64,000 nucleotides of DNA, taken from positions 160,001-224,000 of the forward strand of contig CAXXMV010000001.1 in NCBI GenBank assembly GCA_963662285.2. Reading direction: 5' to 3'. The position numbers and the translations under genes were made by a program. How positions within the stretch are numbered: position 1 is the stretch's first letter; the number at the start of each line of letters is the position of its first letter. Below are positions 22,893 through 52,706 of this stretch, one piece after another. Below the pieces are notes generated by a model, which saw only the letters and a program-made list of their open reading frames with translations, was not told where the DNA came from and made no database searches. This DNA is from a bacterium (GTDB lineage Bacteria; Hinthialibacterota; Hinthialibacteria; Hinthialibacterales; Hinthialibacteraceae).

Positions 22893-22914
22893 CAGCTAAT
22901 CGAGCTGAAGCTCT
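22893..22914. repeat. tRNA-anticodon-stem mimic palindrome 1
   Basis: CAGC-TAATCGA-GCTGAAGCTCT, starting 198 bp before the att fragment at 23091. Confidence 0.6.
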
Positions 22915-23090
22915 ATTCGGCCAGAAATTATTGAATTAGATAACATGCTGATTTGTATACAATTAAAGAAAATCCAAAAGCAGAGGATTAATGATTTTAG
23001 ATTCAATATTTTAAAAAAGAGTGGTCAGAAGGGTGGATAGCGATAAATAATAAATTTTAAAACAACACCATAAGTTCAATAAAATCTAAT

Positions 23091-23133
23091 AGCGGGAGAC
23101 GGGGTTCGAACCCGCGACCCTCAGCTTGGGAAT
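23091..23133 (-). repeat. att site: 3' half of tRNA-Gly(CCC), not a functional tRNA
   Basis: Minus strand TTCCCAAGCTGAGGGTCGCGGGTTCGAACCCCGTCTCCCGCT runs from anticodon loop through T-arm to acceptor; 5' half absent; identical copy at 45569-45611. Confidence 0.92.
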
Positions 23134-23249
23134 AAGGTCTCCCGGTGGTGGAATATGGAGGAATATCGTGCTAAATGACGTACTTTCAGACTCTTCTGAA
23201 GAGCACGAATCCGAAACATAGTTGACTTTGGAGCCCTTAGAGGGAACCG

Positions 23250-23270
23250 AAGGGTTCCCAAAAGGGTTCC
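23250..23270. repeat. Putative integrase arm-type direct repeats
   Basis: AAGGGTTCC at 23250 and 23262; same pair and spacing at 45496 and 45508. Confidence 0.6.
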
Positions 23271-23340
23271 TGGCAGAATCACTCAACATACTCGAAATAG
23301 AATTGTTATTTCGGGGTAGATTGATAAGAAATGTATATGG

Positions 23341-23362
23341 CCCTCAGCCTAACTAGCTGATG
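23341..23362. repeat. tRNA-anticodon-stem mimic palindrome 2
   Basis: CCCTCAGC-CTAACTA-GCTGATG. Confidence 0.6.
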
Positions 23363-23463
23363 TCCTCTTTGATATGATCACTCTGGTCGTGTATCTTTTT
23401 AATATGAAGAAATTCCATTTTATATGCTGAAATTCTTTTCAAATCTATAACATTCTGAGATTA

Positions 23464-23495
23464 AAAAAGCCCTTCCAACAATTGATAGGGCTTTT
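23464..23495. terminator. Possible bidirectional intrinsic terminator
   Basis: AAAAGCCCT...AGGGCTTTT stem flanked by A and T runs. Confidence 0.45.
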
Positions 23496-23515
23496 CTATT
23501 TAACATTTAAATATC

Positions 23516-25047
23516 GTAACGATTTAGTCTTCTGAAAAAATAAATTACACCGAGCGTTACTTCAGGGGCGGTTTCGAAGTTTTATGTAGTATGAACCGAA
23601 ACAAGGAAACCGCGCAGAGAATTCTCCAGGAAATCCTGAAAGGCGTACGGGAACTGACCGAAGAGTCGATTCGCGATCTCATTCAGGAAGACCCGGAAGC
23701 AGCAGTTTTTCTCATTCTCGAACAGGCCCTCCGACTCAAGAAGGCTCTGGCGGCGCAACAAACCAAGAAAATCAGTACGCCATCCGGGATGGTTCCTCCA
23801 TACGAGAAAACCGCCAAAGAAAAAAAGGATAAAAAACGCGGGCGAAAACGGGGACATCCTGGAAGCGGGCGCAAGAAAAACACGAAAATCACGAATCGAG
23901 TACAGCATCCTCCACTGGAGCGATGCCCGGATTGCGGAGGACCCGTCACTCCTTGCCAGGGCGAAACCGCCAAACGAACCCGCGTGATCGAAGACATCCC
24001 GGCGAATATCGAACCGGAGGTCACCGAACACGAAATTCCCCGCTGTTATTGCCCGCACTGCAAAAAACTGGTGGAGCCCAAAGTCGAAGACGCGCTGCCC
24101 AACGCGCGATTGGGAAATCGGGCGCTGGCTCTGTCCGCCCATTGGCACTATGGACTGGGAATGCCCTCCCGGCAGATTGTCGACCTCCTGAGCGGACACC
24201 TAAACACCGTCGTCTCTCCGGGAGGATTGTTCGGTATGTGGAAACGCCTAGCCGATTGGCTGCAACCGTGGTGCGAGCAGTTGATTGATGAAATGCTGGA
24301 AAGCACGGTCCTGCATGCGGATGAGACAGGCTGGCGCGTCAACGGGAAAACGCACTGGCTCTGGTGTTTCACCAACCCGGATGCCACGTTTTACATGATT
24401 CATCCCAGCCGGGGCGATCCAGCGCTGTTCGAATTTTTTCGGGAGACCTTCGAGGGCGTTCTGGTAAGCGATTTCTGGGCGTGTTACGCGCACGTCGACT
24501 CGACGCATCAGTATTGCCTGGCGCATTTGTTGCGCGAATTCAAAAAGGTGGATGGAACCAACGCATCGGCGGTTTGGAAAGAGTTTTCCAAGAAAGCGAA
24601 GCGGCTGTTTGGCGATGCGCTTCGATTGTACCATCGGGAGGGATACGATCCCCAACGGTTTCAATCGCGCATCGACCGGCTCCACGAACGCTTGATTGAT
24701 TTGATGCTGATTCAATCTACAGACAAGGATGTCAAGCGGATCGCCAAACGCCTGGAAAAATACTGGGACGAACTGTTGGTCTTTTTGACTCACCCGGAAG
24801 TTCCTCCCACCAACAATCACGGCGAACGGGAAATTCGCCCGGCGGTGATTATGCGCAAGATGATTCAAGGAAACCAAAGCGAAGCGGGAGCGAAAACGCA
24901 GTCGATTCTGATGACGGTTTTTCGCACTCTCAAACGCCGCGGCTACAATCCGGTGGACGCGGTGGTGGATTCGCTGAAAACCGCCATCCGCACCGGTCAA
25001 TTGCCCCCTTTACCATTTCCACTGCCTTCAAACAACTAAATCGTTAC
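23516..25047 (+). mobile_element. IS66-family element (single-ORF, ISBst12-like)
   Basis: TIRs GTAACGATTTAGT...; 8-bp TSD TAAATATC at 23508-23515 and 25048-25055. Confidence 0.93.
23591..25039 (+). CDS. IS66-family transposase
   Basis: CPDCG/CPHC zinc finger, LHADETGW, LVSDFW, QYCLAHLLR, PTNNHGEREIR. Confidence 0.95.
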   Translation: MNRNKETAQRILQEILKGVRELTEESIRDLIQEDPEAAVFLILEQALRLKKALAAQQTKKISTPSGMVPPYEKTAKEKKDKKRGRKRGHPGSGRKKNTKITNRVQHPPLERCPDCGGPVTPCQGETAKRTRVIEDIPANIEPEVTEHEIPRCYCPHCKKLVEPKVEDALPNARLGNRALALSAHWHYGLGMPSRQIVDLLSGHLNTVVSPGGLFGMWKRLADWLQPWCEQLIDEMLESTVLHADETGWRVNGKTHWLWCFTNPDATFYMIHPSRGDPALFEFFRETFEGVLVSDFWACYAHVDSTHQYCLAHLLREFKKVDGTNASAVWKEFSKKAKRLFGDALRLYHREGYDPQRFQSRIDRLHERLIDLMLIQSTDKDVKRIAKRLEKYWDELLVFLTHPEVPPTNNHGEREIRPAVIMRKMIQGNQSEAGAKTQSILMTVFRTLKRRGYNPVDAVVDSLKTAIRTGQLPPLPFPLPSNN

Positions 25048-25060
25048 TAAATATCAAGGT

Positions 25061-26476
25061 TTAGATTGTATAACCATTAAAATATTCGGGTTTGAGAAAC
25101 GGTTCTGCTCTATCGGTATTGGTTGCTTTCATGTTTTCACTATCCCAATAAAGTATCTCGCGTGTTCCAATTGCCGCGTTGCCAAGCATCGCCATTTCTG
25201 TTAAATACGCGCCATACTCAAAATTAGCGCTTGCCGGTTCGCCGCCTTTGCACGCATTAATCCAATCGCGCATATGGCCCTTCGAGCGCTTAATGGTCTT
25301 TGGTGGACGTTTATAATTTTCATTCAATGAATGAGGCAATAGAACTGGATCTCCCGCCCAACCAGGACACATTATCTTACCCTTGCTCCCACAAAACAGA
25401 ATCCCATTTCCACGGCCAACAAGTCTTTCTCTCGGACCGAGTTCTTCCGGTTTTGGCGGGTCCATTTCGGTGTACCAAGTCAATTTGACAGGAGGCTTAT
25501 TGGCTCGTGCCGGGAACTGATAATAGATGATATATGCCAGCGGGAAAGTGTATTTAGTAACACCATATTGCGTTGCCTGGACAGTGGTTGGTTGTCCCAG
25601 GTCAAGCGAATAAAATGCGGGATCGGCATTATGGCAGAAGAAATCGCCCATTGAGCCGGTGCCGAAATCCCACCAGCCGCGCCATGTATATGGCGTATAG
25701 TCGCTATGATAGGGACGTTTCTTTGCAGGACCAAGCCAGAGGTCCCAATCCATGCCTTCAGGAACAGTCATTTCTTCTGCTGGAAAACTATCACGACGAC
25801 CGACGCGAGCACGGCTATTTGTCCAGGCATGCACTTCCGTTACTTCTCCAATCACTCCATCGTCAATCCATTCTTTCGTAGCGCGAATCCCCTCACCGCT
25901 GTGGCCTTGGTTACCCAACTGGGTGGCGACACCATTTTTCTTTGCGCATTCAGCGATTTTACGGCATTCATAGACTGTGCGTGCAAGAGGTTTTTCGCAA
26001 TAAATGTGTTTACCAAGATTCATTGAATCGATCGCAATAACCGCGTGAGTGTGATCCGGTGTTGCAATGACGCAAGCATCAATCTCTTTCTCTTGTTCGA
26101 GCATCTTACGATAATCAAGATACTCCTTACATTTTGGATAATCCGTCGATTCGTAACGAGTGTTAACCATTTCCAATGCGGGGATACGGCCTGCTTTCCC
26201 TCGGTAGTAAAAGCGGCTGTAGTCATTGGTTGCAGAAACATCACATATCGCAACGATTCGGCAATCGTCTTCCCGAGTAATTGATCTCGTATGCTGTAAA
26301 CCGCGACCACCAGTTCCGATCATGGCAATGTTTAATAAGTCGCTTGGAGGAGTATTTCCTTCTCCACCAAGCACGTGCCGTGGCATAAACGCTATCGAAG
26401 AAAGCGCCACTCCACTGATTAATGCTTCTCGACGAGATATTTTATTGCTCGGTTCTTTGTTTTTATTCGATTTCAT
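25061..26476 (-). CDS. Gfo/Idh/MocA oxidoreductase with Tat-like signal
   Basis: SRREAL, IGTGGRG, ATPDHTH, HIYCEKP, WDLWLGPA. Confidence 0.92.
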   Translation of the reverse strand: MKSNKNKEPSNKISRREALISGVALSSIAFMPRHVLGGEGNTPPSDLLNIAMIGTGGRGLQHTRSITREDDCRIVAICDVSATNDYSRFYYRGKAGRIPALEMVNTRYESTDYPKCKEYLDYRKMLEQEKEIDACVIATPDHTHAVIAIDSMNLGKHIYCEKPLARTVYECRKIAECAKKNGVATQLGNQGHSGEGIRATKEWIDDGVIGEVTEVHAWTNSRARVGRRDSFPAEEMTVPEGMDWDLWLGPAKKRPYHSDYTPYTWRGWWDFGTGSMGDFFCHNADPAFYSLDLGQPTTVQATQYGVTKYTFPLAYIIYYQFPARANKPPVKLTWYTEMDPPKPEELGPRERLVGRGNGILFCGSKGKIMCPGWAGDPVLLPHSLNENYKRPPKTIKRSKGHMRDWINACKGGEPASANFEYGAYLTEMAMLGNAAIGTREILYWDSENMKATNTDRAEPFLKPEYFNGYTI

Positions 26477-26483
26477 AGTGGCC

Positions 26484-27995
26484 CACTACTGTCCCAACAT
26501 TTGAAACAAAAAATGCTGTAAGTATCTTAAATGCATGAGAATAGGTGCTCTCGTGAGCGTAATCGATTTGAAAACCATTTGGTCCGTGCCCCATAATTCC
26601 ACAAACGAGTGGAAGGAGAATGGGGTTGAATTCAGGCCAAACCGTCTTTTCTCAAATCATGGATTTCCTCCCGAAGCACGAATTTCGGCGATTCGTCAAA
26701 CGCTATCGGGGGCATTACAAAGTCAAATCGTTTTCCTGCATGGATCAGTACCTTTGTATGGCGTTCGCCCAACTCACGTATCGAGAAAGTTTGCGAGATA
26801 TAGAAGCGTGTCTTCGATCCGTGCCAAGCAAACTGTACCACATGGGCTTCCGAAGCATCGTTTCACGCAATACATTGGCCAATGCCAACGAACAACGCGA
26901 TTGGCGCATCTACGCCGACCTGGCTCAGGTTCTGATTCGACAGGCGCGCGAGTTATACGCGGGCGAGCCGACCTTCTCAGATCTCGACCAAACCGTTTAC
27001 GCGTTCGATGCCTCTACCATCGACCTTTGCTTATCTCTTTTTCCTTGGGCTCGATTTCGAAAGCGCAAAGCCGCCGTCAAACTCCACACGCTGATCGATC
27101 TGCGTGGCAACATTCCCGTGTTTATTCGGATAACCGATGGAAAAGTTCACGACGTCAATGCGCTGGACAACCTGGTTTTCGAACCCGGTTCGATTTATGT
27201 AATGGACCGGGGATATCTCGATTTCGCACGTCTATACCGCATCCATCAGCATCAAGCGGTTTTTGTCATCCGGGCCAAATCCAACATGCAATACCGCCGT
27301 TTGTATTCCCATCCCGTCGACAAGGCGACCGGATTGCGAAGCGATCAAACCATCAAACTCAAGGGATACTATCCCTCACAAGACTATCCCGACACGCTTC
27401 GCCGGATTCGGTATTTCGACGCCGTAAAAGAGAAGCATCTCACCTTTCTCACAAATCAGTTGACCTATCCCGCCCTCACGATAGCCGACTTGTACCGGAG
27501 TCGCTGGCAGGTGGAACTCTTTTTCAAATGGATCAAACAACACCTTCGCATCAAAGCCTTTTTCGGGACGTCCGAGAATGCCGTCAAGACGCAAATTTGG
27601 ATCGCCGTATCGGTTTACGTTCTCGTCGCGATTCTCAAGAAGCGGTTGAATTTGGAGACCAGCCTTTACTCCATCCTTCAAATCTTGAGCGTGACGCTGT
27701 TCGAAAAAAACTCTCTTCTCCAGTTATTTACCGAACCGGAAACGAAAATTCCCGGTCTCGACGATTTAGATCGCTTTCCTTTATTCGAAGATCTTTGAGC
27801 CATGTCCAAGAAGATTATTTTTTTCTCAGACGCAAATTGAATCCGTTTAATTTCTACACTTTTTGGCAACGTCGAAACGATGTAGAAACGCGAAAAAGGC
27901 CTATTTTCGGGCTTTTCGAAATGCAGTTTACACTTTTTCAGATACTGCATTTTGTAAATCCTTTAAAATCAATCACTAATACTGGGACACTAGTG
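26484..27995 (+). mobile_element. IS4-family insertion sequence
   Basis: 18-bp TIRs CACTACTGTCCCAACATT / CACTAGTGCCC-type CACTAGTGTCCCAGTATT; 9-bp TSD ATAGTGGCC at 26475-26483 and 27996-28004. Confidence 0.92.
26620..27798 (+). CDS. IS4-family transposase (DUF4372 plus DDE_Tnp_1)
   Basis: FDASTIDL, VMDRGY and LYRSRWQVELFFKWIKQ (YREK motif). Confidence 0.95.
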   Translation: MGLNSGQTVFSQIMDFLPKHEFRRFVKRYRGHYKVKSFSCMDQYLCMAFAQLTYRESLRDIEACLRSVPSKLYHMGFRSIVSRNTLANANEQRDWRIYADLAQVLIRQARELYAGEPTFSDLDQTVYAFDASTIDLCLSLFPWARFRKRKAAVKLHTLIDLRGNIPVFIRITDGKVHDVNALDNLVFEPGSIYVMDRGYLDFARLYRIHQHQAVFVIRAKSNMQYRRLYSHPVDKATGLRSDQTIKLKGYYPSQDYPDTLRRIRYFDAVKEKHLTFLTNQLTYPALTIADLYRSRWQVELFFKWIKQHLRIKAFFGTSENAVKTQIWIAVSVYVLVAILKKRLNLETSLYSILQILSVTLFEKNSLLQLFTEPETKIPGLDDLDRFPLFEDL

Positions 27996-28133
27996 ATAGT
28001 GGCCATCTCCTAATATAGTTTAAGATTGCCTATGATGGTGATTAAACGACTGCCAGGATAAGCATCTTATTTATTTTCACAGAATTTCCTTATTGCTTAC
28101 TGAAGCCTTAATACATGGCAACTATACGAAAAA

Positions 28134-31100
28134 TTATTCAGGTTCATCGATACGGACATGAGGTCCAACAATGGCACCAAGAAACATACCATCACGAACA
28201 GCGGATGTGATGATTGTAGCGTCAGCATCGCCTACAAGAGTTTTCCAGTCACTGTCCTTCGTCTTGTATTCAAAAGAACAGGTAGCCTTATCTGCTTTAA
28301 CACGTAAATCGATTTCATTTAGCGACGATAACTCTACTTCACCGACTCGGTTTACATCCCGGCCTTCGACTTTTTCGAGATAGAGTTGAGTCTTACCGTT
28401 TTTATACTGTACCGCCAGAAAATAGTGATATCTCTCATTCATGAAAAGCACTAATCCCGAAGAAATCCCCTCATTCTTTGGAATGCCAACTGATAGAGCA
28501 GCCATGTACTTAGCATGTCGAACTCGTCGTCCCAAAAAGCTGGGATTGCCAGAACCTCTTAGTGTTTCTGAACGGGGAGTTAATTCGAGTCGTTCGGTTG
28601 TTGTATTTACGTTCCACCATTCCTCCTCAGGTTCACGGAGCATAATCCACTCCAATGAAAGATCCTTCTGTTTGAAATCATCACTCCAAGTAAAACTGCC
28701 ATTGAGAGGTGCATCTGATGCTTGAATTTCAACGCCATTGGGTGATTTGCTTACAAGTGGCACTCGCTCGCCCGGCGGCAAGATGATCGGCCAATCATCA
28801 TCTGTCCAATTGACTGGCAGCAAGAACGTTTCTCGTCCCATTGGAGAAAGCCCATTTTTGTATGGACGCACGGCAAGAAATACTGCCCACCAATTATTGT
28901 CCGGCCCAATAACCAAATCGGCATGTCCCGTACAAGTAACAGCGTTGGGTGCATTGCTATCCAAATCACGTTGAGTTAGGATCGGATTCTTATCCCAAGG
29001 GATGTAGGGACCATCGACTTCTTTGCTGCGAAAAATGACTTGTGAATGCTGCGTACTCGTGCCACCCTCAGCACAGCAGAGATAGTACCAACCTTTGAGT
29101 TTATAGATATGCGGTCCTTCTATCCAAACCGGCTTTTTTGAAATATCGACACCGCCATTAATGAGCAACTTACGCGACTCATACATTTTTTTGTTTTTAG
29201 GATCAAACTGCTGAATCCAAACTGCACGGTGCCCATCATATAATGGTCTGCCTTCAGGAGCATCATTATAGACAATCCAGGCTGTTCCATCTTCATCAAA
29301 GAAGATCGAAGGATCAATTCCGCCAAACCTTAAGGGCATGGGATCAGACCAAGGGCCAGCCGGATTTTCAGCTGTTACTACGAAATTGCCTGGGCCGTCG
29401 ATCTTGGTACATACAACGTAAAAAAGTCCATCATGATAAGTGATAGCTGGGGCGAATAGTCCTGCACTTACTCGGCGGTTCCTAAAGTTGAGTTGTTCAG
29501 GGCGATGAATAACATGGCCAATCTGTTTCCAATTTACAAGATCGGTACTATGAAAGATCGGTAAACCAGGAAAGTATTCGAAGGTCGAATTAATCAGGTA
29601 GTAGTCCTTGCCTGCGCGGCAAATACTCGGATCAGGGTGAAAACCGGCGAGAATCGGATTACGATACTGATCGGAAGAAAGTGGAGCAGTTGCATTGATA
29701 TCTTCTCCCGTGTATTCGAAATTATCGAAAAATACTGGCTTTATTTGTTGCGCGGACTTATCATCCGTCAAAATAAAGGAATCTACATCAACAAAACCCG
29801 CACTAGACTCAGGATTATAGTAAAAGATAGCGAACTGCTGTCCTTGAAATGTTCCGGTTTGCCAATCGAATTGGAGTGGAAATTCTTGTCCTGCATCAGA
29901 CCAATTCTGACCATCCAAACTATATGAACATTTTCCCTTATGGATTTCGAAGTCCATCTCCGTGCGGAGCATAATAAAATCGGTTTGAATGGAAGTTAGT
30001 ATTTCGCTTTCATGTGTTTTCTGACCGTTTTTTATATCTTCTATCACTTGTTTTCCAAGAGTTAATTCACCTTGTTCATTGCAAGTAATGAATATGTGTC
30101 CGTTAAATTTCCCTAATGTTCCAAAACCGCAGATGTCTCCAGGCTTGAGATGACTCAAATCCAAAGTCACGGTACCTTGGCACCACGGCCCCCATCCCTT
30201 TTGGGTGAGCGTATTGCGTGCTGTCCAAAATTGATCGGATTGTGTTGCTTTGAGACGAAGATAGCCGGGCCGTTCGGTAAGCGACCAGCGATTATCGTCA
30301 GGATTGTGATTCCACTGCCATTGCAATCCCAATATATCAGAATCGAATTGATCCGATGTTGCTGGCTCTAAGACCGGTTTGCCTTGAATTGGTTTGGTTG
30401 CAACATCCGGCACAGTGCCTGGAGCGTCTGGCGTTCCCCACATGGGCCAATCATCTTGCCAAAAGATGGGACTGATATTAGTGATTCTGCCCACCGACTT
30501 GAAATCACACATCACGAATCCGTACCAACTCCCATCAGGCAGATCGACAATGGCTCCCTGATGACCACCGGTTCTATCGTCGATAGACCGTTTTGTTTCC
30601 CAAGGGCCATTTAGACTTTTAGCACGCGATATATCCATTCCCAATCTTCTGGGTATGGATTGAAACAAGTAGTACCAATCTCCACGTTTGATAATCTTTG
30701 ATCCTTCAGCGCCTCTGTTAAAAAAAACCTTTTTTGCTTCTTCTATTTCAGTGTAATCTTCATTTAGAGTTAATAGAGTGAGTGTTCCGTCGTATCCAGC
30801 CGATGTCGCAACATAACCCTTGCCGTCATCATCGAAAAATAAGGCTGGATCAAATGCACCGCGGTCTAATTCTATATAATTCCATGGGCCTCTTGCATCT
30901 TTGGCTGTGTATATTCTTGTCTTTTGTCCCACTGGAGTTACAGCCACATAGAAAGTGCCATTATGGTATCGAAGGCTTGGTGCAAATATTCCAGATCGGT
31001 AGGCTGTACCTTTTTGAAGATCGTATTCTGACCGTCCATTCAACCGTTTGATGACATGGGAAAGATATCTCCAGTTAACTAAATCTTGCGAGTGCAGAAT

Positions 31101-31316
31101 CGTTAATCCTGGTGTGTTCACAAAGGTGGTTGTCGCAAAATAAAAATCATCACCAACTCTAATGATGTCTGGATCTGGGAAATCGGCATAAAGAGGTGGA
31201 TTGGAATAGGTTCCGTCACCATTGTCCGATTGCCTTGCCAAAAGAGTACTTGTGAAAACAACAAGTAAGCAAAAGAGTGTGAGTGATGATATAAGTTTCT
31301 TGAAAAGATTTTCCAC
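28134..31316 (-). CDS. Tandem GH43-GH43 beta-xylosidase/arabinofuranosidase
   Basis: Two catalytic modules (DFPDPDIIRVG and GFHPDPSICRAG), each followed by a beta-sandwich; GTG start after AGAGGAG. Confidence 0.92.
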   Translation of the reverse strand: MENLFKKLISSLTLFCLLVVFTSTLLARQSDNGDGTYSNPPLYADFPDPDIIRVGDDFYFATTTFVNTPGLTILHSQDLVNWRYLSHVIKRLNGRSEYDLQKGTAYRSGIFAPSLRYHNGTFYVAVTPVGQKTRIYTAKDARGPWNYIELDRGAFDPALFFDDDGKGYVATSAGYDGTLTLLTLNEDYTEIEEAKKVFFNRGAEGSKIIKRGDWYYLFQSIPRRLGMDISRAKSLNGPWETKRSIDDRTGGHQGAIVDLPDGSWYGFVMCDFKSVGRITNISPIFWQDDWPMWGTPDAPGTVPDVATKPIQGKPVLEPATSDQFDSDILGLQWQWNHNPDDNRWSLTERPGYLRLKATQSDQFWTARNTLTQKGWGPWCQGTVTLDLSHLKPGDICGFGTLGKFNGHIFITCNEQGELTLGKQVIEDIKNGQKTHESEILTSIQTDFIMLRTEMDFEIHKGKCSYSLDGQNWSDAGQEFPLQFDWQTGTFQGQQFAIFYYNPESSAGFVDVDSFILTDDKSAQQIKPVFFDNFEYTGEDINATAPLSSDQYRNPILAGFHPDPSICRAGKDYYLINSTFEYFPGLPIFHSTDLVNWKQIGHVIHRPEQLNFRNRRVSAGLFAPAITYHDGLFYVVCTKIDGPGNFVVTAENPAGPWSDPMPLRFGGIDPSIFFDEDGTAWIVYNDAPEGRPLYDGHRAVWIQQFDPKNKKMYESRKLLINGGVDISKKPVWIEGPHIYKLKGWYYLCCAEGGTSTQHSQVIFRSKEVDGPYIPWDKNPILTQRDLDSNAPNAVTCTGHADLVIGPDNNWWAVFLAVRPYKNGLSPMGRETFLLPVNWTDDDWPIILPPGERVPLVSKSPNGVEIQASDAPLNGSFTWSDDFKQKDLSLEWIMLREPEEEWWNVNTTTERLELTPRSETLRGSGNPSFLGRRVRHAKYMAALSVGIPKNEGISSGLVLFMNERYHYFLAVQYKNGKTQLYLEKVEGRDVNRVGEVELSSLNEIDLRVKADKATCSFEYKTKDSDWKTLVGDADATIITSAVRDGMFLGAIVGPHVRIDEPE

Positions 31317-31365
31317 GTTTTTCTCCTCTAAGCGGATAACAACTGTCAAAAAAGTTGTGTTTTGA

Positions 31366-32448
31366 TTATTTCTGATTTAGTTTCAAGAGACCAAGCCGAT
31401 AGGGTAAAAGTTCGTATCGACCACCGGACGATGGATAGCGTCCCTGAAAAAGCAACTGTAGGTTATTGGGATCAATTGTCATCGTTTCATCATATCCATC
31501 GCGGAGTAATTCTCCATGACTGATATCCTTAGTCCAGGCTTCAACCCCTTCTGTAAAGGAGACATTGTTGATCCCGGCAAACGGTGTATCCCATGTGTTC
31601 GCGTTAGTTACTTCCGTCCAATCTCCATTTAGGTGATCAGCAATCCAGGCACGGTAATAGCGGGCAGGACCAATCGCTTCGACAAGTGTTATATATTTAT
31701 CAGTGCCTTTGATTTTGTAGGTCATGCTGCCTTCAAAAACATCAAATCGTCTTCCTTCAATAATAACTTCCGGTTCGCTCATGCCTTTGGGGAAATCTTC
31801 GATCTTGGTTTGGCTACGATACGTACGTCCGTTATCACCAGTGAAAAACAGATAGGCGTGTGTATCGTCACAAATCACCCAATAGTCAATCCATAAGCGT
31901 GGAGCGGTGGTAGGTTTTGAATCAAAAAAGTCTTGCGGCTTGGTCCAGGTTTCCGGTTTGGAAAGATCATCCGTTGTACAATACTGAGGCTGTTGCGATT
32001 GAAAAATTAAATACCATTTCTTATGCGGACGGAAATAGAACAAATGCGGAGCACAATGATATCCGGTTAAATATGGATTTTGATCGACAAAATGTAATTT
32101 GGCATTAGGTGCATCAGACCAATCTTTAAAATTCAGGTAAACCATATTCCAGGTTTTGGCGGATGTTGAGTAGACCGTGGCATAGATGTGCCACAAATCA
32201 TTGTAACGAACCACTGTAGGATCTTTAACCGATACTATACTGTGGGTTTCATCAGAGACAGGCTTGACCAGGATATCCGAAGATATCCATTTCAGCGGTG
32301 TGTCAAAAGGCGCTTCGACCGTGGTTTTATTTTCTGCTTCGGGAGCATCCGCTTGGTTTTGTGATGCTGAATCTAAAATATAGGTAAAAAGAACACAGCA
32401 GACGAACGCCATTGAGACCGCAAAATGATTAACTTTTGATTTTTTCAT
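31366..32448 (-). CDS. GH62 alpha-L-arabinofuranosidase
   Basis: SVKDPTVV, APHLFYFRPHKKW, IDYWVICD, FEGSMTYK, WTKDISHGELLR, LPYRLGLL. Confidence 0.9.
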   Translation of the reverse strand: MKKSKVNHFAVSMAFVCCVLFTYILDSASQNQADAPEAENKTTVEAPFDTPLKWISSDILVKPVSDETHSIVSVKDPTVVRYNDLWHIYATVYSTSAKTWNMVYLNFKDWSDAPNAKLHFVDQNPYLTGYHCAPHLFYFRPHKKWYLIFQSQQPQYCTTDDLSKPETWTKPQDFFDSKPTTAPRLWIDYWVICDDTHAYLFFTGDNGRTYRSQTKIEDFPKGMSEPEVIIEGRRFDVFEGSMTYKIKGTDKYITLVEAIGPARYYRAWIADHLNGDWTEVTNANTWDTPFAGINNVSFTEGVEAWTKDISHGELLRDGYDETMTIDPNNLQLLFQGRYPSSGGRYELLPYRLGLLKLNQK

Positions 32449-32485
32449 TAGTAGACCTTTCAATAAAATTATTTTAGTTGTTGAT

Positions 32486-33199
32486 TTATTTCCCGTTTTC
32501 TTTAAGGCTAACAGTATATCCCTGTAAGGGCTCATCATTCGCATCAAGAAATCTAGCGCAGAAATCTGTGGCTCCACCGCCATTAATTACGGCGCATCGT
32601 ATAATATTCGGGCCCTTCTTGAGCGTCAGGCGTTTGGAAATACCATCGTCAATGACCGTTTGTCGGTCATTATAAATGCCAATAACCTCTTGCCCATTAA
32701 CCCACCAAACCGATGCTGCGTTAGAGCCGATCGCCAAACGAACATCTTTCATCTCCTGCGAGCAATGGATGATTGTGACGCCCCAGAATAGGACGTTTGA
32801 TGTAGGTTTGCCGAAACTCTTGGCGAAATAATAAAGATTAACGTTATATTCATTCGTTTGCACGGTATGCCAAATGAATTCCTTACCGTCGATCGTAACC
32901 TTGTCTCCATCGTTTGGAATCACCGTAAACTGATTGGGAAAATACTCGCGCTTTACAGATGCCTGGACCGCGCTATCCGTTAGGCCGATAACGCTGATCG
33001 GATCAAGAATAATCCATTGTTGAATAAAACCATCAGCATGAGGAACTATTCCAACTGATGCTGAAAGCGAGTCTGGAGTTATCGGTCCGCGACTTACGCA
33101 ACCAGTTGCTAATATCAGCAACACGGCTCCTGTTAAGATGATAAATACTGATGTTTTTTGGATGTATGGAAAAGTATTCATGAGAATCCTTCTTTTCAT
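32486..33199 (-). CDS. Putative lipoprotein with beta-sandwich domain in the xylan cluster
   Basis: Lipobox-like LATGC; GSNAASVWWVNG and LKKGPNIIRCAVINGGG; no catalytic motif recognised. Confidence 0.65.
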   Translation of the reverse strand: MKRRILMNTFPYIQKTSVFIILTGAVLLILATGCVSRGPITPDSLSASVGIVPHADGFIQQWIILDPISVIGLTDSAVQASVKREYFPNQFTVIPNDGDKVTIDGKEFIWHTVQTNEYNVNLYYFAKSFGKPTSNVLFWGVTIIHCSQEMKDVRLAIGSNAASVWWVNGQEVIGIYNDRQTVIDDGISKRLTLKKGPNIIRCAVINGGGATDFCARFLDANDEPLQGYTVSLKENGK

Positions 33200-33237
33200 T
33201 ATTGTTACTAAAACTCAGATGATCTTTTTCTCGATTG

Positions 33238-34716: not shown

Positions 34717-34810
34717 AGTCAGTCCTCTATTTATGTTTTGTATAAAGAATCGTGTCACTATTCAATTTCCACTTCCTTGCATTACTTTGAATGATTCTCT
34801 ATCAGCATTG

Positions 34811-37132: not shown

Positions 37133-37426
37133 AGTGATATTCCGGACACCTTTCAAAGAGATTACTTTTATTTGTCTTCGATTGTATAGAAAAAGTTGCA
37201 AATTCTCTATATAAACGAGAATCGTGAAACTCAATTCATCCCATAAACGCTCAATTTTTCAGTATTCGTATGATATTTGCCAAATATCCAGAAAATACCA
37301 GTTAATATTGCAATGTGTATTAAATATGTATTTTTTGTTTTAAATCAGTTAATGATTCTCATTGCATTTCACTTTCAGATTGATGAGATATATTAAGAAA
37401 TTCCAATGCTTTCACCTATCAATTGA

Positions 37427-40117
<2,691 letters not shown>

Positions 40118-40150
40118 ATACACATCTTACTTGAAGAATGGGAGTAGTCC

Positions 40151-41269
40151 GTGAAAACAAAACGAATAATCACACTAATGAGCGCATTAATTCTGTTGAA
40201 TTGCGCACTTTCAAATGCGGCTGAACAGGATGTCCCCGTGTTAAAAGAAGTATTCAAGAATCACTTCCTCATAGGCGGGGCGATGAATCGATGGGTGATT
40301 GCTGGACGAGATGCCAATGCGGCAGCACTCGCCGAAAAACATTTTAATACTGCGACTGCAGAAAACGCCATGAAATGGCAGCGCATTTATCCCCGGATCG
40401 ACCAATACAACTGGGGACCGGCTGACGAGTTTATGGAGTTCTGCAAGAAAAATAAAATGGCAGCCATCGGCCATTGCCTAGTCTGGCATAGTCAGGTTCC
40501 GCGCTGGGTGTTTCTTGATAATGAAGGAAATGACCTAACGAGAGACGCGCTTTTAAACCGCATGAAGAATCATATCGACACAGTCGTCGGTCGCTATAAA
40601 GGCAGAATCAAGGGTTGGGATGTTGTCAATGAAGCGCTGGAAGGCGACGGCTCGCTAAGGAAAAGCAAATGGCTAGAGATCATTGGTGAAGATGCTGAAG
40701 AAAAGAAATACGATTACATCGAAAAGGCTTTTCAATGGGCTCAGGAAGCCGATCCCGACACTGAGTTATACTACAATGACTACGGTTTGGAAACCTCAAA
40801 AAAGAAAACCGATGGAGCGGTCGAGATCGTAAAGCATTTAAAGTCCAAGGGCATCCGCATCGATGCTGTTGGTATCCAACTGCACGGGGGATTGGAGTAC
40901 CCCAGCGCAGAAGGTCTTGAATACGCGATCACCAGTCTGGCAGCAACCGGCGTCAAAGTAATGATTACGGAATTAGATATCCGAACACGGCGGCGAGGAT
41001 ATCGCGGTGCCGATATCAGCCGGGTCAACCGGCAAAGCACGACCGATTCAAATGCGAATTCCGAGGAAACTCAGAAAAAAGTTGCAGAGAAATATACCGA
41101 GATTTTTTCGATCCTGAACAAACACAAAGACGATGTTAAACGGGTCACGTTTTGGGGCATCTATGATGGCGCATCCTGGATTGGAGGCTCTCCCTTGTTG
41201 TTTGATCGGAGTTACCAGCCCAAGGAGGCGTTTTTTGCCGTAGTAAAGACAGCACAGGATAACAAGTAG
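40151..41269 (+). CDS. GH10 endo-1,4-beta-xylanase
   Basis: ENAMKW, GHCLVWHSQ, WDVVNEA, LYYNDY, GIQLH, ITELDI. Confidence 0.95.
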   Translation: MKTKRIITLMSALILLNCALSNAAEQDVPVLKEVFKNHFLIGGAMNRWVIAGRDANAAALAEKHFNTATAENAMKWQRIYPRIDQYNWGPADEFMEFCKKNKMAAIGHCLVWHSQVPRWVFLDNEGNDLTRDALLNRMKNHIDTVVGRYKGRIKGWDVVNEALEGDGSLRKSKWLEIIGEDAEEKKYDYIEKAFQWAQEADPDTELYYNDYGLETSKKKTDGAVEIVKHLKSKGIRIDAVGIQLHGGLEYPSAEGLEYAITSLAATGVKVMITELDIRTRRRGYRGADISRVNRQSTTDSNANSEETQKKVAEKYTEIFSILNKHKDDVKRVTFWGIYDGASWIGGSPLLFDRSYQPKEAFFAVVKTAQDNK

Positions 41270-41311
41270 ACACACTTACGATAAGCGGGGAACACTGTTT
41301 ATTGTATTTCA

Positions 41312-42571
41312 TCAAAAATCTGTTTTGATACGGTAAGTGACTTCACCATTTTCATTGGAAATGCTACCGCCGTTTTCAAGAATCGCAATCTCTGCTATTG
41401 CTACTAATCGGTTAACTATATCCGAAATTTTGTTGAAATTTGGAAGGTTATCCCTTGAATAATTAATGTAGGTATCGTTGAAAGGCTTTTCCCATTTTCC
41501 ACGAGAAGGTAGTTCTTTGGTAAATTTATCTGGAATTGAAGTTCCACCATTAATGACACCGAGTAATCCTCCAAATGTCGCCGCCTGGTTGTCGCAGTCA
41601 TAACCGGATGTGGTGGCAATTCCAACAGTCTTGGTAAAATCTCCATCACCATATAAGAGCGCCATGACGCCATTCAATCCATTGATCACGGCACCACCGA
41701 CCGGATAGGGAATTTTAAAACCACCCACTTCATTGAAGTATTTATCATGAATTAACTGCCTTGTCACTTTCCAGTCGTCATTCTCCTTTGACCATTTCAC
41801 TAAATCTTTAAATGCTGTCAAGTATGGACTGTCATCAGGTAATTTACTCATACCTATTTTGAGCAATTTGTATGGATTTTTTTCAAAGAATGCAGCGCTG
41901 TACATCGTGACGATTACTTTCGTACCATGCGTCCCCCAACTGTCATTGTTGATTCTGGCACCCCATTCAGCTCGTTCGGCTGCTTTGTCGGTCATACCCG
42001 GATAAACAGCTCCCCAGATCTCGTTAGTGAGTTGAGATGAAATACGATACCAGTAATCATTGAATTCTTTGCTCCCGGTTTTTGGCGGTAAATATCCTTG
42101 GTTAATCAAATCTCTCACTCGGGCATTAGACGACCAGATGAACCTTTTAACATGTTCTTTTCGCATCGCGGCAATTTCTTCATAATTTAAGTCAAGCCCA
42201 TATTTTTCAATAGCGTGAAGGGTTACAAATTCAATATCCGTGTCATCATCGCTCCAGGAGCCGCCCATCGCATCGGCCATGATGTTGACAAAACTTCGCC
42301 GGTCGTTGAGGTTCATCTTTAAACCAAGGCTTTCAGCGTCTTTGTAATTGAAATAATGGTCAATAAAAACGGGGATGGGTTCATCGGTGTAGAGGTTTTC
42401 AAAAGGAAATCCAACGTAATTTCCTGCGAGTTGCCCTATCCAGTAGCCATGTATTTTATCAGTAAGTTCAGCCTTTGAAATAGTCCGATAATTCTGTGAA
42501 AAAGAGAAATTATCAGCCATGAAACAAACGAAAAAAGCAAGGATTAGTAATTTTAAAAAAGAAATTTTCAT
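41312..42571 (-). CDS. Secreted ADP-ribosylglycohydrolase-family protein
   Basis: Signal peptide, SDDDTDIE, ALLYGDGDF, GYDCDNQAATFGGLLG. Confidence 0.82.
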   Translation of the reverse strand: MKISFLKLLILAFFVCFMADNFSFSQNYRTISKAELTDKIHGYWIGQLAGNYVGFPFENLYTDEPIPVFIDHYFNYKDAESLGLKMNLNDRRSFVNIMADAMGGSWSDDDTDIEFVTLHAIEKYGLDLNYEEIAAMRKEHVKRFIWSSNARVRDLINQGYLPPKTGSKEFNDYWYRISSQLTNEIWGAVYPGMTDKAAERAEWGARINNDSWGTHGTKVIVTMYSAAFFEKNPYKLLKIGMSKLPDDSPYLTAFKDLVKWSKENDDWKVTRQLIHDKYFNEVGGFKIPYPVGGAVINGLNGVMALLYGDGDFTKTVGIATTSGYDCDNQAATFGGLLGVINGGTSIPDKFTKELPSRGKWEKPFNDTYINYSRDNLPNFNKISDIVNRLVAIAEIAILENGGSISNENGEVTYRIKTDF

Positions 42572-42840
42572 GATTGCATACTTTCAATAGTATTTGATAT
42601 TATTGGATTTGTAGAATCTCCAGTAAACACGCTCTGTTAAAAAGGATTTCTATTCAACAGCGTCCTTGATTTTTATGTAAAATTACCCTGATAGACAGGA
42701 ATAATTTTTACTTTCACCCATTCATTTGATCAATTTATCAAATAATTGAATCATGAACAAGGTGGTGCAGAGAGTGAGAGGTAACTGTGTTTTGTAGGAT
42801 TTATGATAAAAACTAATAATCCAACTTTACACAAAAAATC

Positions 42841-43440
42841 GTAAGCATTTAGCGGAGTGAAGAGAAAGGAGGGAGCGAACCAGAGAAAAGCGAGTCATGA
42901 TGGGCGGAGAAAAGAGTGTCAACGGGGTTGAGATCCCGCCTTTTGAGTGTGCGGAAGATGGACATCAAAATGGCCTGAGTGTGGGCTCCGGTCATGCTAC
43001 GGTTGCCTTGAATTACTTTGCGCATGATGACCGCAGGCCGGATTTCCCGCTCGGCATGGTTGTTCGTCGGTGGAACGTTGGGATATTCCAGAAAGGTCAA
43101 CAATTCGTCCCAATATTTTTGCAAGCGCTTGGTCAGCCGTTGAACATCGCCATCGTTCGATGGAATCAACATAAGATCAACCAAGCGCTCATAGAGCCGT
43201 TCGATCCGGGATGTATAAGTGTCCGGTGAGAAATCATCCCGCTGGCGTAAGCGTTAGGCGTCTTTGAACAAACGTTTGGTTTTCTTGGAAAAGGTGGGCC
43301 ACTCCGCTGACGAGTTGGAAACATCGACCTTCTCGAACTCGCGCAACAGATCGACCAGACAGAATTGCCGTTTTCCATTGGCGATGGAATCGTAAGCGGC
43401 CCAAAAATCGGTGACCAAGCCGCCTTCGCTGATCGGGAAA
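42841..43440 (-). pseudogene. IS66-family transposase remnant (3' part and one end)
   Basis: GTAAGCATTTAG end at 42841; frameshifted fragments LVTDFWAAY, QFCLVDLLRE and PTNNHAEREIRP, paralogous to 23591-25039. Confidence 0.85.
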
Positions 43441-43446
43441 TGAAGA

Positions 43447-44322
43447 TGGGAGTGGAAGGATGGCGATACAGTTGATGTGAACTTACCCATGCGCACACAC
43501 GTTGAACGTCTACCTGACGGTTCTGATTGGGTGGCTATTCTAAATGGCCCGATTGTACTCGCCAAGCCTGACGGGACAGATCAATTGGAGGGGTTGTTTG
43601 CTGACGAAGGCCGAATGGCGCACGTTGCCAATGGCCCGACGAGACCACTCGATAAAGTTCCGGCCTTACTGACCAATGAAAAGGAACTTCTCAATCATAT
43701 CGTTCCCGATCTGGCTGCCGGATCGCTTCACTTCCGTATTAAAGATGTGATCGAGCCACCTGAATCAGAGGGCTTACCTTTAATACCGTTCTTCAGAATA
43801 CATGAATGTCGCTACCATATGTACTGGGAACTCACCAGTATTGAAAAGATCAAGGCCCGCAAAGAAAAAATCGCCGCTCAGGAACGTGCCCGCGCCGCAC
43901 TCGAAGCAGCTACACTCGACGCTGTCGCTGTGGGAGAACAGCAACCCGAAGTGGAGCATGACCTGAAAGGCGAAGGAATGGAGTCGGGAACTCATAATGG
44001 TCGACGCTGGCGGCATGGAGACTGGATTCAATACACCCTCAACACACAAGGTGTGAAGGAAGTCACTTTAGCCGTAACCTACTCCGGTGACGACCGGGGC
44101 CGGGAATTCGATATCTTGGTTAACGGAACGGCAATCGCTACACAGAAACTGACCGGGGAAAAACCAAACAGTTTTATTGAAAAGCGGTATGCGATTCCCT
44201 CTGAGATCCTTGAAAAGGCAAGCACTGGCCGACTAACGGTTCGGTTTTCTGTAAAACGGTGGCTCGCTGGAGGGTTGTATGATGTGCGTCTGCTCAAGCC
44301 AGGCGCTCCGGAAACAAAGTAG
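43447..44322 (+). pseudogene. C-terminal fragment of a GH127/GH146-like beta-L-arabinofuranosidase
   Basis: EWKDGDTVDVNLPM...NGPIVLA, LIPFFRIHECRY, GEQQPEVEH; N-terminal catalytic part missing at the IS66 junction. Confidence 0.75.
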
Positions 44323-44362
44323 TATTTTCTTAAATCATCAAAATAAACCATAGGAGATCGCT

Positions 44363-45241
44363 ATGGTTCAGAAAATTAAAGCCGCTTTACTAGTACTGAT
44401 AGCCTTACCCCTGTTCATTGTTAGTGTGTTCGGCGATCCCGATCCGAATTTTTATATTTTCCTTTGTTTCGGTCAATCCAATATGGAGAGTGGAGGAAAA
44501 ATGGAAGAGGTGGACCGAACCGTCGATTCGCGTTTTCAGGTCATGGCTGATTTTGACAATCCAGAACGCGGGTGGAAAAAGAATAACTGGTATGATGCGA
44601 TCCCGCCTTTATCTGCACGAGGCAAGGGGATTTGTCTGGTCGATTACTTCGGGAGAACGTTGGTCGCCAACCTGCCGGAGAAGTTTCGCCTGGGGATCAT
44701 TTAAGTCACTGTCCCAGGTTGCAAAATCGAACTGTTCGAGAAAGATACGTTCATGACGTACCTTGATACAGAGCGGGACTGGATGAAGAACATTGTCAAG
44801 AACTACAACAATAATCCCTATCAATATCTTCTCGATATGGCCAAAGCGGCGCAGAAGGATGGTGTGATCAAGGGAATCCTGCTCCATCAAGGGGAGTCTA
44901 ATCCCAACGACAATCAATGGCCGAACAAAGTGAAAGGCGTTTACGACAATCTGATCAACGATCTTCATCTCAAGGCTGATGATGTTCCGTTGCTGGCGGG
45001 TGAAACCGTGAACGCCGATCAGGGAGGCGTTTGTGCAGGTTTCAACAAAATTATGGCGAAGTTACCCACGGTTCTTCCCAATTCTTATGTCGTATCTTCA
45101 GCGGGTTGCACATGCCATCCAGACCATTTGCATTTCAATTCAGCAGGATCAAGAATGTTTGATAAGAGATATGGAAAAACTATGCTATCGTTGCTCGCAA
45201 GCAAGACTCCCGATTCAAGCCAGCCTGTCCCATCAATATGA
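44363..45241 (+). pseudogene. CE6/SASA-type acetylxylan esterase with internal nonsense codon
   Basis: FGQSNME, HQGES and DHLHF in one frame, interrupted by TAA at 44702-44704. Confidence 0.85.
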
Positions 45242-45366
45242 TTAAGAGATTTCTCGTGAGTAAGTCGAAGACTTATTCAAAAGACTTTATGCAAACATCA
45301 TCTCCAATTAATAAAGATATGTTCAGATAACTGACTCAAATTTCTATTTATAGGTTTTTAAGGGAA

Positions 45367-45391
45367 CCCTCAGCTCATTGAGCTGATGCTC
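45367..45391. repeat. tRNA-anticodon-stem mimic palindrome 3
   Basis: CCCTCAGC-TCATTGA-GCTGATGCTC; CAGC starts 198 bp before the att fragment at 45569. Confidence 0.65.
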
Positions 45392-45495
45392 CCCCTCATG
45401 ATAAAAAAGGGCTTTTTCGTAACTTAATATTTTTAAGGGGATTACGAAATTGAGTATTTCAATCAAATGCCGGAAAATTGCCGATATTTTTTTAA

Positions 45496-45516
45496 AAGGG
45501 TTCCTGAAAGGGTTCC
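45496..45516. repeat. Putative integrase arm-type direct repeats
   Basis: AAGGGTTCC twice, 12 bp apart; positionally equivalent AAGAGTGG/AAGGGTGG pair at 23017-23036. Confidence 0.6.
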
Positions 45517-45568
45517 CAGGGCAGATTCTGTTAAAATAAAAATTTTCGTAAGTCCAATAAAATCAGTA

Positions 45569-45611
45569 AGCGGGAGACGGGGTTCGAACCCGCGACCCTC
45601 AGCTTGGGAAT
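45569..45611 (-). repeat. att site: 3' half of tRNA-Gly(CCC)
   Basis: Identical to 23091-23133; about 200 bp from the tyrosine integrase gene. Confidence 0.92.
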
Positions 45612-45763
45612 CTGTTGCTCCTATATAAAAAATTTACTTATCTACTTGATTTTTCAATACTTTTTTATTATAATAACGTATTGAATATACTAGGTATAAA
45701 AAATTAATAACTACCTGTATTTTCTAGTTTTTTCTCTTGGTTTCTTATGTGTTCCTGTGGTCT

Positions 45764-45811
45764 AAACATGACAAAAACATGACAAGGAGGCCATCAGCTT
45801 GAAGCTGATGG
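45764..45811. promoter_or_regulatory. Tandem 11-bp repeat and anticodon-stem-like palindrome 4 in the integrase leader
   Basis: AAACATGACAA twice (45764-45785), AAGGAGG, then CCATCAGC-TTGAA-GCTGATGG (45791-45811). Confidence 0.55.
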
Positions 45812-46954: not shown

Positions 46955-47146
46955 TTATTTTTGCGGAATTTCTTGTGAATTTATTACCCAGTTTTCAATA
47001 TCTGATAATTTGAATCGAATATATTTACCACTATTTCCTCCGATTTTGATGAAGGGAATCCGTTTTGCATGCGTTAGTTTATATATATACGATTTAGGGA
47101 CCTGGAGATATTCTGCTACTTGATCAACAGTCATTAAGGTTTCCAT
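46955..47146 (-). CDS. Excisionase-like HTH_17 DNA-binding protein
   Basis: LMTVDQVAEYLQVPKSYIYKL...IPFIKIG...IRF...DIENW. Confidence 0.9.
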   Translation of the reverse strand: METLMTVDQVAEYLQVPKSYIYKLTHAKRIPFIKIGGNSGKYIRFKLSDIENWVINSQEIPQK

Positions 47147-47229
47147 TTTTATTTCCCAATCCTTTACATCTATTCCGTTTCGCATCAGGATTGGCGAGAA
47201 AACCTCACCAATCCTCATTCGGACCGGAA

Positions 47230-52607: not shown

Positions 52608-52706
52608 TTTTTTAACTCCCTCATACTCTGCAGGATTGGCCTTCCCTCCAGTATCCTAACAAAATCCCGCGAGAACCGCAAACCACGGGTGAGCTCAGGA
52701 GGTCTG
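50378..52706 (-). mobile_element. Insertion sequence of unassigned (ISNCY-like) family
   Basis: TIR CAGACCTCCTGA at both ends; 5-bp TSD AATAT at 50373-50377 and 52707-52711. Confidence 0.9.

Follow-up and report, generated by a model that had tools for sequence, protein, structure and literature searches.

Anticodon-stem look-alikes in the attachment arms of a tandem tRNA-Gly(CCC) island array as candidate non-crossover, core-type integrase sites

Why should the arms of an attachment (att) site carry imperfect copies of its own core? The question is raised by a 64,000-nucleotide (nt) stretch of DNA from a bacterium of the phylum Hinthialibacterota (assembly GCA_963662285.2, contig CAXXMV010000001.1, positions 160,001 to 224,000), hereafter the window, which corresponds to G000:C1:160001-224000 in a source genome, G000, of 7.29 Mb, 44% G+C and 8 contigs. 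Two sequencing runs from a single sample contain the stretch at 0.99 and are its probable origin; in the other runs the value is 0.10 or lower. Islands inserted at a tRNA-Gly(CCC) gene meet here at two junctions, and a sequence-only reading had pointed out four nearby palindromes that reproduce the anticodon stem around other spacers, suggesting that they serve as decoys or autoregulatory operators, or as spacer-coded recombination sites for swapping cargo. We compared the window with the remainder of G000 and with a set of 35 genomes of the source phylum, and found that these palindromes, which we call mimics, are the best-kept parts of the arms after the core and mark the arms' outer edge. 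We give an even chance to the explanation that the mimics are non-crossover, core-type integrase-binding sites which, when placed in the leader of an integrase gene, would act as autoregulatory operators.

ARAGORN found no tRNA in the window; the intact tRNA-Gly(CCC) gene lies at G000:C1 c[299180-299252], 75 kb outside it. On the plus strand it reads GACCCTCAGC-TTGGGAA-GCTGATGCTCTACC and continues GCTGATGCTC after the loop, and both the GCTGA and the TGCTC that had been predicted to follow the loop are present in the retrieved gene. Three displaced 3' parts of tRNA-Gly occur at C1 183091, 205568 and 277986, the first two inside the window, with the intact gene at the array end. As had been claimed, the att duplication stops at the 7-nt anticodon loop: two 63-nt direct repeats (23071-23133 and 45549-45611, 92% identical) both end TTGGGAA+T; the final 42 nt of each copy are the minus-strand 3' part of tRNA-Gly(CCC), terminating with the anticodon loop. 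At junction 1 this displaced part occupies 23091..23132 (minus strand, loop TTGGGAA at 23126-23132) and is 100% identical to the intact gene over 42 nt, and at junction 2 the second displaced part occupies 45569..45610 (minus strand, loop at 45604-45610). The single tRNA-Gly(CCC) is occupied by a 116-kb tandem array (G000:C1 183091-299252, window 23091 onward) of three islands: B (window 23133-45611, 22.5 kb), C (window 45612 to C1 277985) and D (C1 278029-299179), the last with its own integrase adjoining the intact tRNA. Arm repeats differ from island to island, and two of the three islands have unrelated integrases (26% identical). A tyrosine integrase gene (Pfam PF00589, 45825..46946, plus strand) stands at one end of island C, its start picked via alignment with a 64% identical homologue in G014; among the 16 open reading frames (ORFs) of island B scanned against Pfam no integrase was found.

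All four mimics are present at the positions first reported, and none is assigned to a strand. Mimic 1, the left-arm form ('mimic L'), begins at 22893 as CAGC-TAATCGA-GCTGAAGCTCT and, delimited as CAGC-TAATCGA-GCTGAAGCTCTA (22893..22915), stands at the outer edge of a P-arm-like flank with 5/22 mismatches to the tRNA flanks. Mimic 2, the right-arm form ('mimic R'), reads CCCTCAGC-CTAACTA-GCTGATG at 23341 and GGCCCTCAGC-CTAACTA-GCTGATGTCC over its whole extent (23339..23365; 4/22 mismatches). Mimic 3, the mimic L of island B, is CCCTCAGC-TCATTGA-GCTGATGCTC at 45367, abutted by an inverted GGGTTCC (45363..45391 together; 3/22 mismatches). Mimic 4, CATCAGC-TTGAA-GCTGATG (45792..45810; 5/22 mismatches), ends 15 nt before the start codon of the island C integrase. 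Likeness is scored here as the number of mismatches to the 22 tRNA positions flanking the loop, and the score was scanned genome-wide.

The resemblance reaches beyond the stem. On the two sides of the 7-nt spacer, 8+7 bases of mimic 2 and 8+10 bases of mimic 3 match the tRNA, bases outside the stem included, which upholds the view that the mimics are look-alikes of the attB core and not mere palindromes. In mimic 3 the 18 flanking positions are intact and the tRNA loop is changed at 5/7, and this combination is unlike a neutrally decaying tRNA copy. Six non-tRNA places in the genome have 4/22 mismatches or fewer, and four of these six are island-associated. The window has 4 sites of the pattern CAGC-N7-GCTG where 0.38 would be expected, a count reached by 1/100 shuffles; three of these sites are mimics 1-3 and the fourth, at 41968, falls within an ORF. 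Across the 7.29 Mb, TCAGC-N7-GCTGA has just 13 sites, among them two tRNA-Gly genes, mimics 2 and 3 and a paralogue of mimic 2, which rules out a genome-wide repeat element, and mimic 4 is the genome's only CATCAGC-N3-9-GCTGATG. A degenerate tRNA or tRNA-like gene was likewise rejected for the mimics: ARAGORN makes no call, the spacers have no U33 on either strand, and Rfam returned chance-level matches only, far under gathering scores and none covering a mimic.

Each island has short direct repeats of its own, which we read as putative arm-type sites. The 12-base-pair (bp)-spaced repeat pairs of the sequence-only reading are real: GTGGTC/GTGGAT at 23021/23033 and GGGTTCC at 45498/45510 start ~70-73 bp before the tRNA part, and in all three left-hand arms the repeats begin ~70 bp ahead of the tRNA 3' end. 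The GTGGTC/GTGGAT pair (23021..23038, plus strand) has GGGTGGAC as its counterpart in relatives, with GGGTGGAC/GGGTGGAT at the equivalent place in G001, G004 and G016, and GGGTGGAC is present in both arms in G016. Pairs of GGGTTCC occupy both arms of island B, at 23252/23264 in the left (P') arm, as part of a GGGAACC, GGGTTCC, GGGTTCC series (23243..23270, no strand assigned), and at 45498/45510 in the right (P) arm (45498..45516, plus strand). Those of island C are CATGACAA in both arms (45767/45778 and C1 277917/277928): next to the integrase the ACATGACAA pair, 11 bp apart, spans 45766..45785 (plus strand) and recurs at C1 277917 and 277928, ~69 bp ahead of the third tRNA fragment. Island D has GTACACAA in both arms.

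The mimics lie outside these arm-type-like repeats, at the outer edge of the att arms. Counted from the loop start, mimic L is at -233/-234 (G000, G016, G001) and mimic R at +218 to +239. At both junctions the distance from the CAGC of mimic L to the tRNA-derived part (starting at 23091 and 45569) is indeed 198 bp. This equality does not hold up as a rule: the left flanks of both fragments are homologous (79% mean column identity), so that mimics 1 and 3 are two copies of a single element, and the 198 bp is inherited by common descent, not independent evidence. Besides mimic 3, mimic 1 has homologues in G001, G004 and G016. In G001:C253 and G004:C9 a 240-bp left arm with the mimic adjoins intact tRNA-Gly, and in G016:C65 and G001:C288 it adjoins a fragment, which indicates that the flank left of junction 1 is itself an island-type arm. 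In a comparison of island ends with relatives, which had been proposed for finding breakpoints at the mimics, the homology with G001:C253 and G004:C9 starts at mimic 1 (query 694/695 = 22893).

Mimic 2 belongs to a second family, with further G000 copies at C8 1139443 and, decayed, at C8 1273100, and copies of mimic R in G016, G008, G001 (two), G011 (two) and G004. Around the first of these G000 copies, at G000:C8 1137686-1139470 (L142 9686-11470), a 13-nt core look-alike, CTCAGCTTGGGAA, without the tRNA 3' half, stands after an integrase gene and an HTH_17 gene and before a P' arm with the mimic R copy; transposase fragments lie on both sides, and the whole looks like a relocated or decayed attP-like junction. 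We also observed that a second, weaker half-palindrome, CATCAGCC..., recurs ~70-75 nt past mimic R (P' arm alignment; C8 1139500; L335 +275), faced by GTTGAT or TCTGAT in some copies.

How well the mimics are kept was read from two alignments, one of 9 P' arms with three kinds of arm repeat (GGGTTCC, GGGTGGAC, TAACAAC) and one of 7 P arms. Over the P' arms the 24-nt block of mimic R has an identity of 0.85 (half-sites 0.94, spacer 0.66), the remainder of the arm 0.50 and the sequence beyond the arm 0.34. Over the P arms the mimic L block has 0.84 (right half-site 0.94, spacer 0.82, left half-site 0.74), the arm 0.57 and the sequence beyond it 0.34. The arm repeats vary with the island type and the half-sites stay tRNA-like, as would be expected if they are bound by the part of a protein that recognises the same tRNA.

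Such palindromes also recur in front of integrase genes. The G014 homologue, 64% identical to the island C integrase, is preceded by a counterpart of mimic 4, GACCCTCAGC-CTGGAA-GCTGA, at an offset of +191 (+190 in G000). The leader in G009:C62, with an integrase 28% identical to that of island C, has CATCAGC-TAATCAA-GCTGATG and CTGCCACGG repeats, and the leader in G017:C380, with an integrase 26% identical, has two palindromes and TGTAACC repeats; both share the order core, lineage-specific direct repeats, palindrome, integrase start. The direct repeats are a different word in each lineage, CATGACA in G000, CTGCCACGG in G009 and TGTAACC in G017. Among five junctions with a P'-side PF00589 integrase, the palindrome is present in four (G000, G014, G009, G017), where it ends 13-20 nt before the start codon, and is absent from the fifth, G022:C170, which is P4-type. 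A promoter-like site directed toward the integrase gene, TTGATT-17-TATAAT (45646..45674, plus strand, 10/12 consensus positions), stands upstream of the repeats in island C, between core and palindrome at +42..+70, and sites that likewise match the consensus lie between core and palindrome at +43..+70 in G014 and three times in G009; none was found in G017. In four of the five P'-side leaders, candidate integrase sites, made up of direct repeats and a core-like palindrome, would by their sequence fall between a putative promoter and the start codon, and of the options first offered for the mimics it is the autoregulatory operator that fits these palindromes in three distant integrase lineages.

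Under our preferred explanation the integrases would cross over in the 7-nt anticodon loop, with the anticodon stem serving as inverted core sites, and the mimics would be additional core copies, with both half-sites kept and the spacer altered, set ~190-240 bp away from the genuine one. Integrase would bind the mimics through its core-binding and catalytic domains but could not complete strand exchange between mimic and tRNA, their spacers being unlike in sequence and often unequal in length. Two settings may be distinguished. In island C and three other loci (setting a) the palindrome comes after a promoter-like site and the arm-type repeats and before the start codon, and could be the operator or roadblock by which the integrase limits its own synthesis. 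In A/B-type arms (setting b) mimics 1-3 form the outer limit of the conserved att region and may either assist the recombination complex as accessory sites or regulate the first promoter that faces outward; mimic L has a promoter-like site of that orientation downstream of it. That mimics 1-3 are architectural or regulatory accessory sites is our guess. A bold reading, to us an improbable one, would go further and make the arm-borne copy an intramolecular pseudo-substrate that occupies the core-binding domains and so gates integration or excision.

The layout resembles that of lambda-type att sites at a tRNA anticodon loop: there is a PF00589 integrase, the duplication covers the tRNA from its 3' end as far as the anticodon loop, the stem gives inverted core sites around a 7-bp overlap, and lineage-specific direct repeats occur in both arms. 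It is unlike them in that the arms here also have complete core look-alikes, with another spacer, ~190-240 bp from the crossover core. The study of KplE1 by Panis et al. (2010, PMC2951348) summarises the two-domain binding model of heterobivalent tyrosine integrases and describes an attL that overlaps the integrase promoter, so that IntS represses its own gene; there the repression is ascribed to integrase binding at the promoter near the -10 box, at arm-type P' sites, autoregulation is predicted for most tRNA-associated integrases, and the predicted autoregulated pairs have intergenic distances of 208-228 nt. Island C is similar in that its integrase gene points away from the tRNA-derived junction, the att arm contains a promoter-like site, putative integrase sites lie between core and start codon, and the intergenic distance, ~214 nt, is inside the range given there. 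It differs from KplE1 in that the extra element is a core-type palindrome beside the start codon and in that the regulation is a prediction from sequence. A core-type palindrome standing beside arm-type repeats as a putative operator would be what is new here. Our full-text literature search, from which subscription journals were outside coverage, returned no description of core look-alikes in att arms.

The sequence-only reading had named a motif no more frequent near att sites than background as a ground for giving it up. A census of 95 loci around tRNA-Gly-like matches gave 72 distinct matches, 46 intact genes and 26 fragments, the two being told apart roughly, from the bases that follow the loop, and not by ARAGORN. 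Four of the 26 fragments were left out, L331 and L365 at a contig end and L332 and L360 resembling intact genes with one substitution, and 22 remain; the sequence of L011 ends 250 nt after the loop, and degenerate copies (L335, L346 and the mimic L of L002 and L003) were not scored as hits. The palindrome [CT]CAGC-N5-9-GCTG[AG] occurs within 450 bp of 8/22 fragment junctions versus 1/46 intact tRNA-Gly genes. Relative to a G000 background of 0.027 per 900 bp the binomial P is 5e-8, and Fisher's test gives P = 3e-4, values that overstate the case, as the eight palindrome-bearing fragments represent ~4 lineages. The motif is thus enriched near att sites in the relatives, above background.

Several results weigh against our explanation. 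The palindrome is absent from 14/22 tRNA-Gly fragment junctions in the relatives (nine of the palindrome-less junctions have no obvious integrase ORF, as judged by eye), from the arms of island D and the P arm of island C, from the tRNA-Arg island in G000, and from 13/13 IMG/VR contigs with a junction (six of these contigs with less than 310 nt on one side; ~7 distinct flanks in all). Mimics are therefore not general at att sites, and their absence from many junctions means that they are unneeded for recombination at this tRNA. Scored alone, mimics 1 and 4 are at background, with 5/22 mismatches as in 17 other places in the genome. The spacer of mimic L is kept as well as its half-sites (0.82), which could reflect recent descent, and some half-sites are poor, the right one in G014 and the left one in G001 and G004. 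Spacer length ranges from 4 to 8 nt among copies, which is awkward for two protomers in a fixed geometry, and the promoter calls are consensus matches only.

Other searches were also negative. The integrase-bearing form of the GGGTGGAC-type arm in G014 lacks the palindrome; that integrase gene, at G014:C111 (L141 2798-3526), seems to be split into ORFs of 123 and 242 amino acids, the C-terminal one meeting no stop codon as it continues across the arm repeats and tRNA fragment. A wide pattern scan of genome contigs gave no new family member among at least 118 stretches, which were mostly real anticodon arms of tRNA-Gly(UCC), tRNA-Arg and others. In viral contigs a tRNA-excluding pattern had no match beside a tRNA-Gly junction among at least 118 stretches (in contig L205 a core-like word lies 142 nt from a pattern match), the mimic R pattern had 0 matches, and the mimic L pattern had 3, all in unrelated high-GC coding sequence. 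The mimic R pattern matched 18 stretches of metagenome contigs, 16 by chance and 2 in a tRNA-Pro-like arm.

Among the alternatives the one that survives best, and still an unlikely one in our judgement, is that the mimics are non-functional relics, tRNA- or core-derived sequence duplicated once into the arms and carried along by descent. Descent is plain enough, in that mimics 1 and 3, and all mimic R copies, each form one homologous family; some copies are visibly decaying (C2 1511733, C8 1273100, G004:C54 with a 4-nt spacer, G011:C110 with CTTAGC), and many islands at the same tRNA have no mimic at all. A relic should not, however, keep its half-sites at 0.94 in an arm kept at 0.50, nor should neutral decay spare the flanks of mimic 3 and strike its loop. 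Leader palindromes moreover accompany three integrase lineages that share only 26-28% identity, whose arm repeats are unrelated and whose leaders do not align.

Identical half-sites around different spacers also recall heterospecific recombination sites of the lox, FRT and att kinds, in which half-sites are shared and the central spacers differ; cassette exchange by HK022 Int (PMC7736782), in which a 7-bp overlap sets partner choice, gives a precedent for overlap specificity. The mimics would then be spacer-coded sites at which an integrase exchanges or deletes cargo, which we think improbable. The homology of island variants ends exactly at mimic L in G001:C253 and G004:C9, and TAATCGA arms (junction 1, G001:C253, G004:C9, G001:C288) adjoin different cargo, as this proposal would have it; but a breakpoint at the outermost constrained site is equally expected for the mere edge of a functional att region. 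The cargo of island B is bounded by CTAACTA and TCATTGA, a pair unable to recombine if the overlaps have to be identical, nowhere in G000 do two sites sharing a spacer enclose a segment, and the leader-type spacers are 5 and 6 nt long at sites in front of a gene. The cargo-swapping role offered by the sequence-only reading finds no support here, the cargo being bracketed by no natural matching-spacer pair. A wider version, in which same-spacer copies on different islands or an excised circle swap cargo while the att scaffold stays, amounting to natural cassette exchange, seems to us just as improbable.

The position of the leader palindromes, finishing 13-20 nt before a start codon, would also suit RNA hairpins that alter how well the integrase mRNA is translated or how long it persists; at the arm edges the palindromes might be weak terminators or insulators, and a simple lax scan flags mimic 1 (minus strand), mimic 2 (plus strand) and one G017 palindrome as terminator-like. 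We doubt this strongly. The stems keep the CAGC/GCTG of the tRNA in every lineage, with none of the covariation that a structure-only hairpin would show, and this constancy argues for sequence-specific recognition over an RNA hairpin. Placement relative to the ribosome-binding site varies, the palindrome following GGAGG in G000 and preceding a purine-rich stretch in G014, G009 and G017; no T-rich tail is kept (mimic 3 and the G016 homologues have no T run), and no Rfam family matches. Intrinsic terminators in particular were rejected, as the T run is not conserved and only mimics 1 and 2 of the four pass the lax scan.

Least probable of all is that the mimics are operators of another island protein, an HTH_17 excisionase-like protein or an RHH antitoxin, with a chance likeness to the tRNA stem: the sites are palindromic and adjoin promoters, mimic R lies ~60 nt upstream of the RHH-Doc promoter-like site in G001:C498, G004:C54 and G011:C110, and an HTH_17 gene follows the integrase gene in island C, but the tRNA identity reaches non-palindromic bases (CCC on the left, TGCTC on the right), mimic R is kept without an RHH-Doc pair in island B, C8 1139443, G016 and G008, and the RHH-Doc promoter region has a palindrome of its own, TTTCATGAAA, between the hexamers (read by eye).

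Two further systems invite comparison. In the TnpI/IRS system of Tn4430 and in resolvase res sites, extra copies of the recombinase motif flank the crossover site without undergoing exchange. Additional motif copies flank a crossover core here as well; theirs, however, adjoin the core and act in resolution, whereas those described here are ~200 bp off, on both sides of an att site that is integrative and has separate arm-type repeats. The integrase-less islands of accretion are the second. The cis-mobilizable elements associated with the integrative and conjugative elements of Streptococcus thermophilus are att-flanked, lack an integrase and stand in tandem with an integrase-bearing element. 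Island B is like them in having both att arms and no integrase and in adjoining island C with the same core, and unlike them in that its arm repeats, GGGTTCC, are not those of island C, CATGACA. That difference makes mobilisation of B by the island C integrase doubtful.

The lack of an integrase in island B bears on one more claim, that an integrase would be expected after mimic 2. Relatives with the same left arm have an RHH antitoxin (72 amino acids) and Fic/Doc toxin (129 amino acids) pair there instead (G001:C498, G004:C54, G011:C110), and no integrase was found directly after mimic R in G016 or G008. The conserved pair is the first operon inside the B-type left arm (L304, L335, L346, L377 7977-8584), and in G000 its place is taken by an IS66-family transposase gene (23591..25039, plus strand, Pfam PF03050) with further copies in the genome. 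The cargo of island B (25061..45241), among which there is no integrase, comprises two GH43 genes, GH62, GH95, GH10, an esterase-malectin gene, an ADP-ribosylglycohydrolase and a split SASA esterase. It forms a hemicellulose-degrading set, in which one GH43 protein of 1071 amino acids has two GH43 modules and the SASA esterase is broken into two ORFs (44363-44704 and 44753-45241).

In island C the integrase gene is followed by an HTH_17 protein gene, possibly for an excisionase (46955..47218, minus strand, Pfam PF12728). Among the 35 phylum genomes the G014 protein is the only relative of the integrase; the viral contig collection had no relative, and the best match in the phage collection was 27% identical. 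Further in, at 49428-53366, an Hsp70-like gene appears to be interrupted by a Transposase_29 gene (50377-52368), leaving halves at 49428-50405 and 52695-53366, with a GrpE-like ORF upstream. Immediately left of junction 1 are genes for a TIR-domain protein (20821-21861) and an AhpC/TSA-like protein (22199-22807). The start of the AhpC-like gene and its promoter region are duplicated at 45290-45345 in the right arm of island B, truncated to four codons, and its 3' end region (22199-22270) resembles 72-nt stretches, 85-90% identical, in G001:C119 (twice), G014:C89 and G016 and may be a small dispersed repeat. In the neighbourhood of the islands there are also genes with an N-terminal methylation motif, FG-GAP repeats, and Reg_prop/Y_Y_Y hybrid kinases.

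If the mimics are bound by integrase, the att sites of tRNA-targeting islands would gain a third class of site, core-type and non-crossover, besides the crossover core and the arm-type sites. The palindromes would then provide a simple sequence marker by which to recognise integrase autoregulation and the real outer boundaries of attP, and would help to explain why integrase-less metabolic islands, here one with xylan-degrading genes, keep recognisable ends in tandem arrays.

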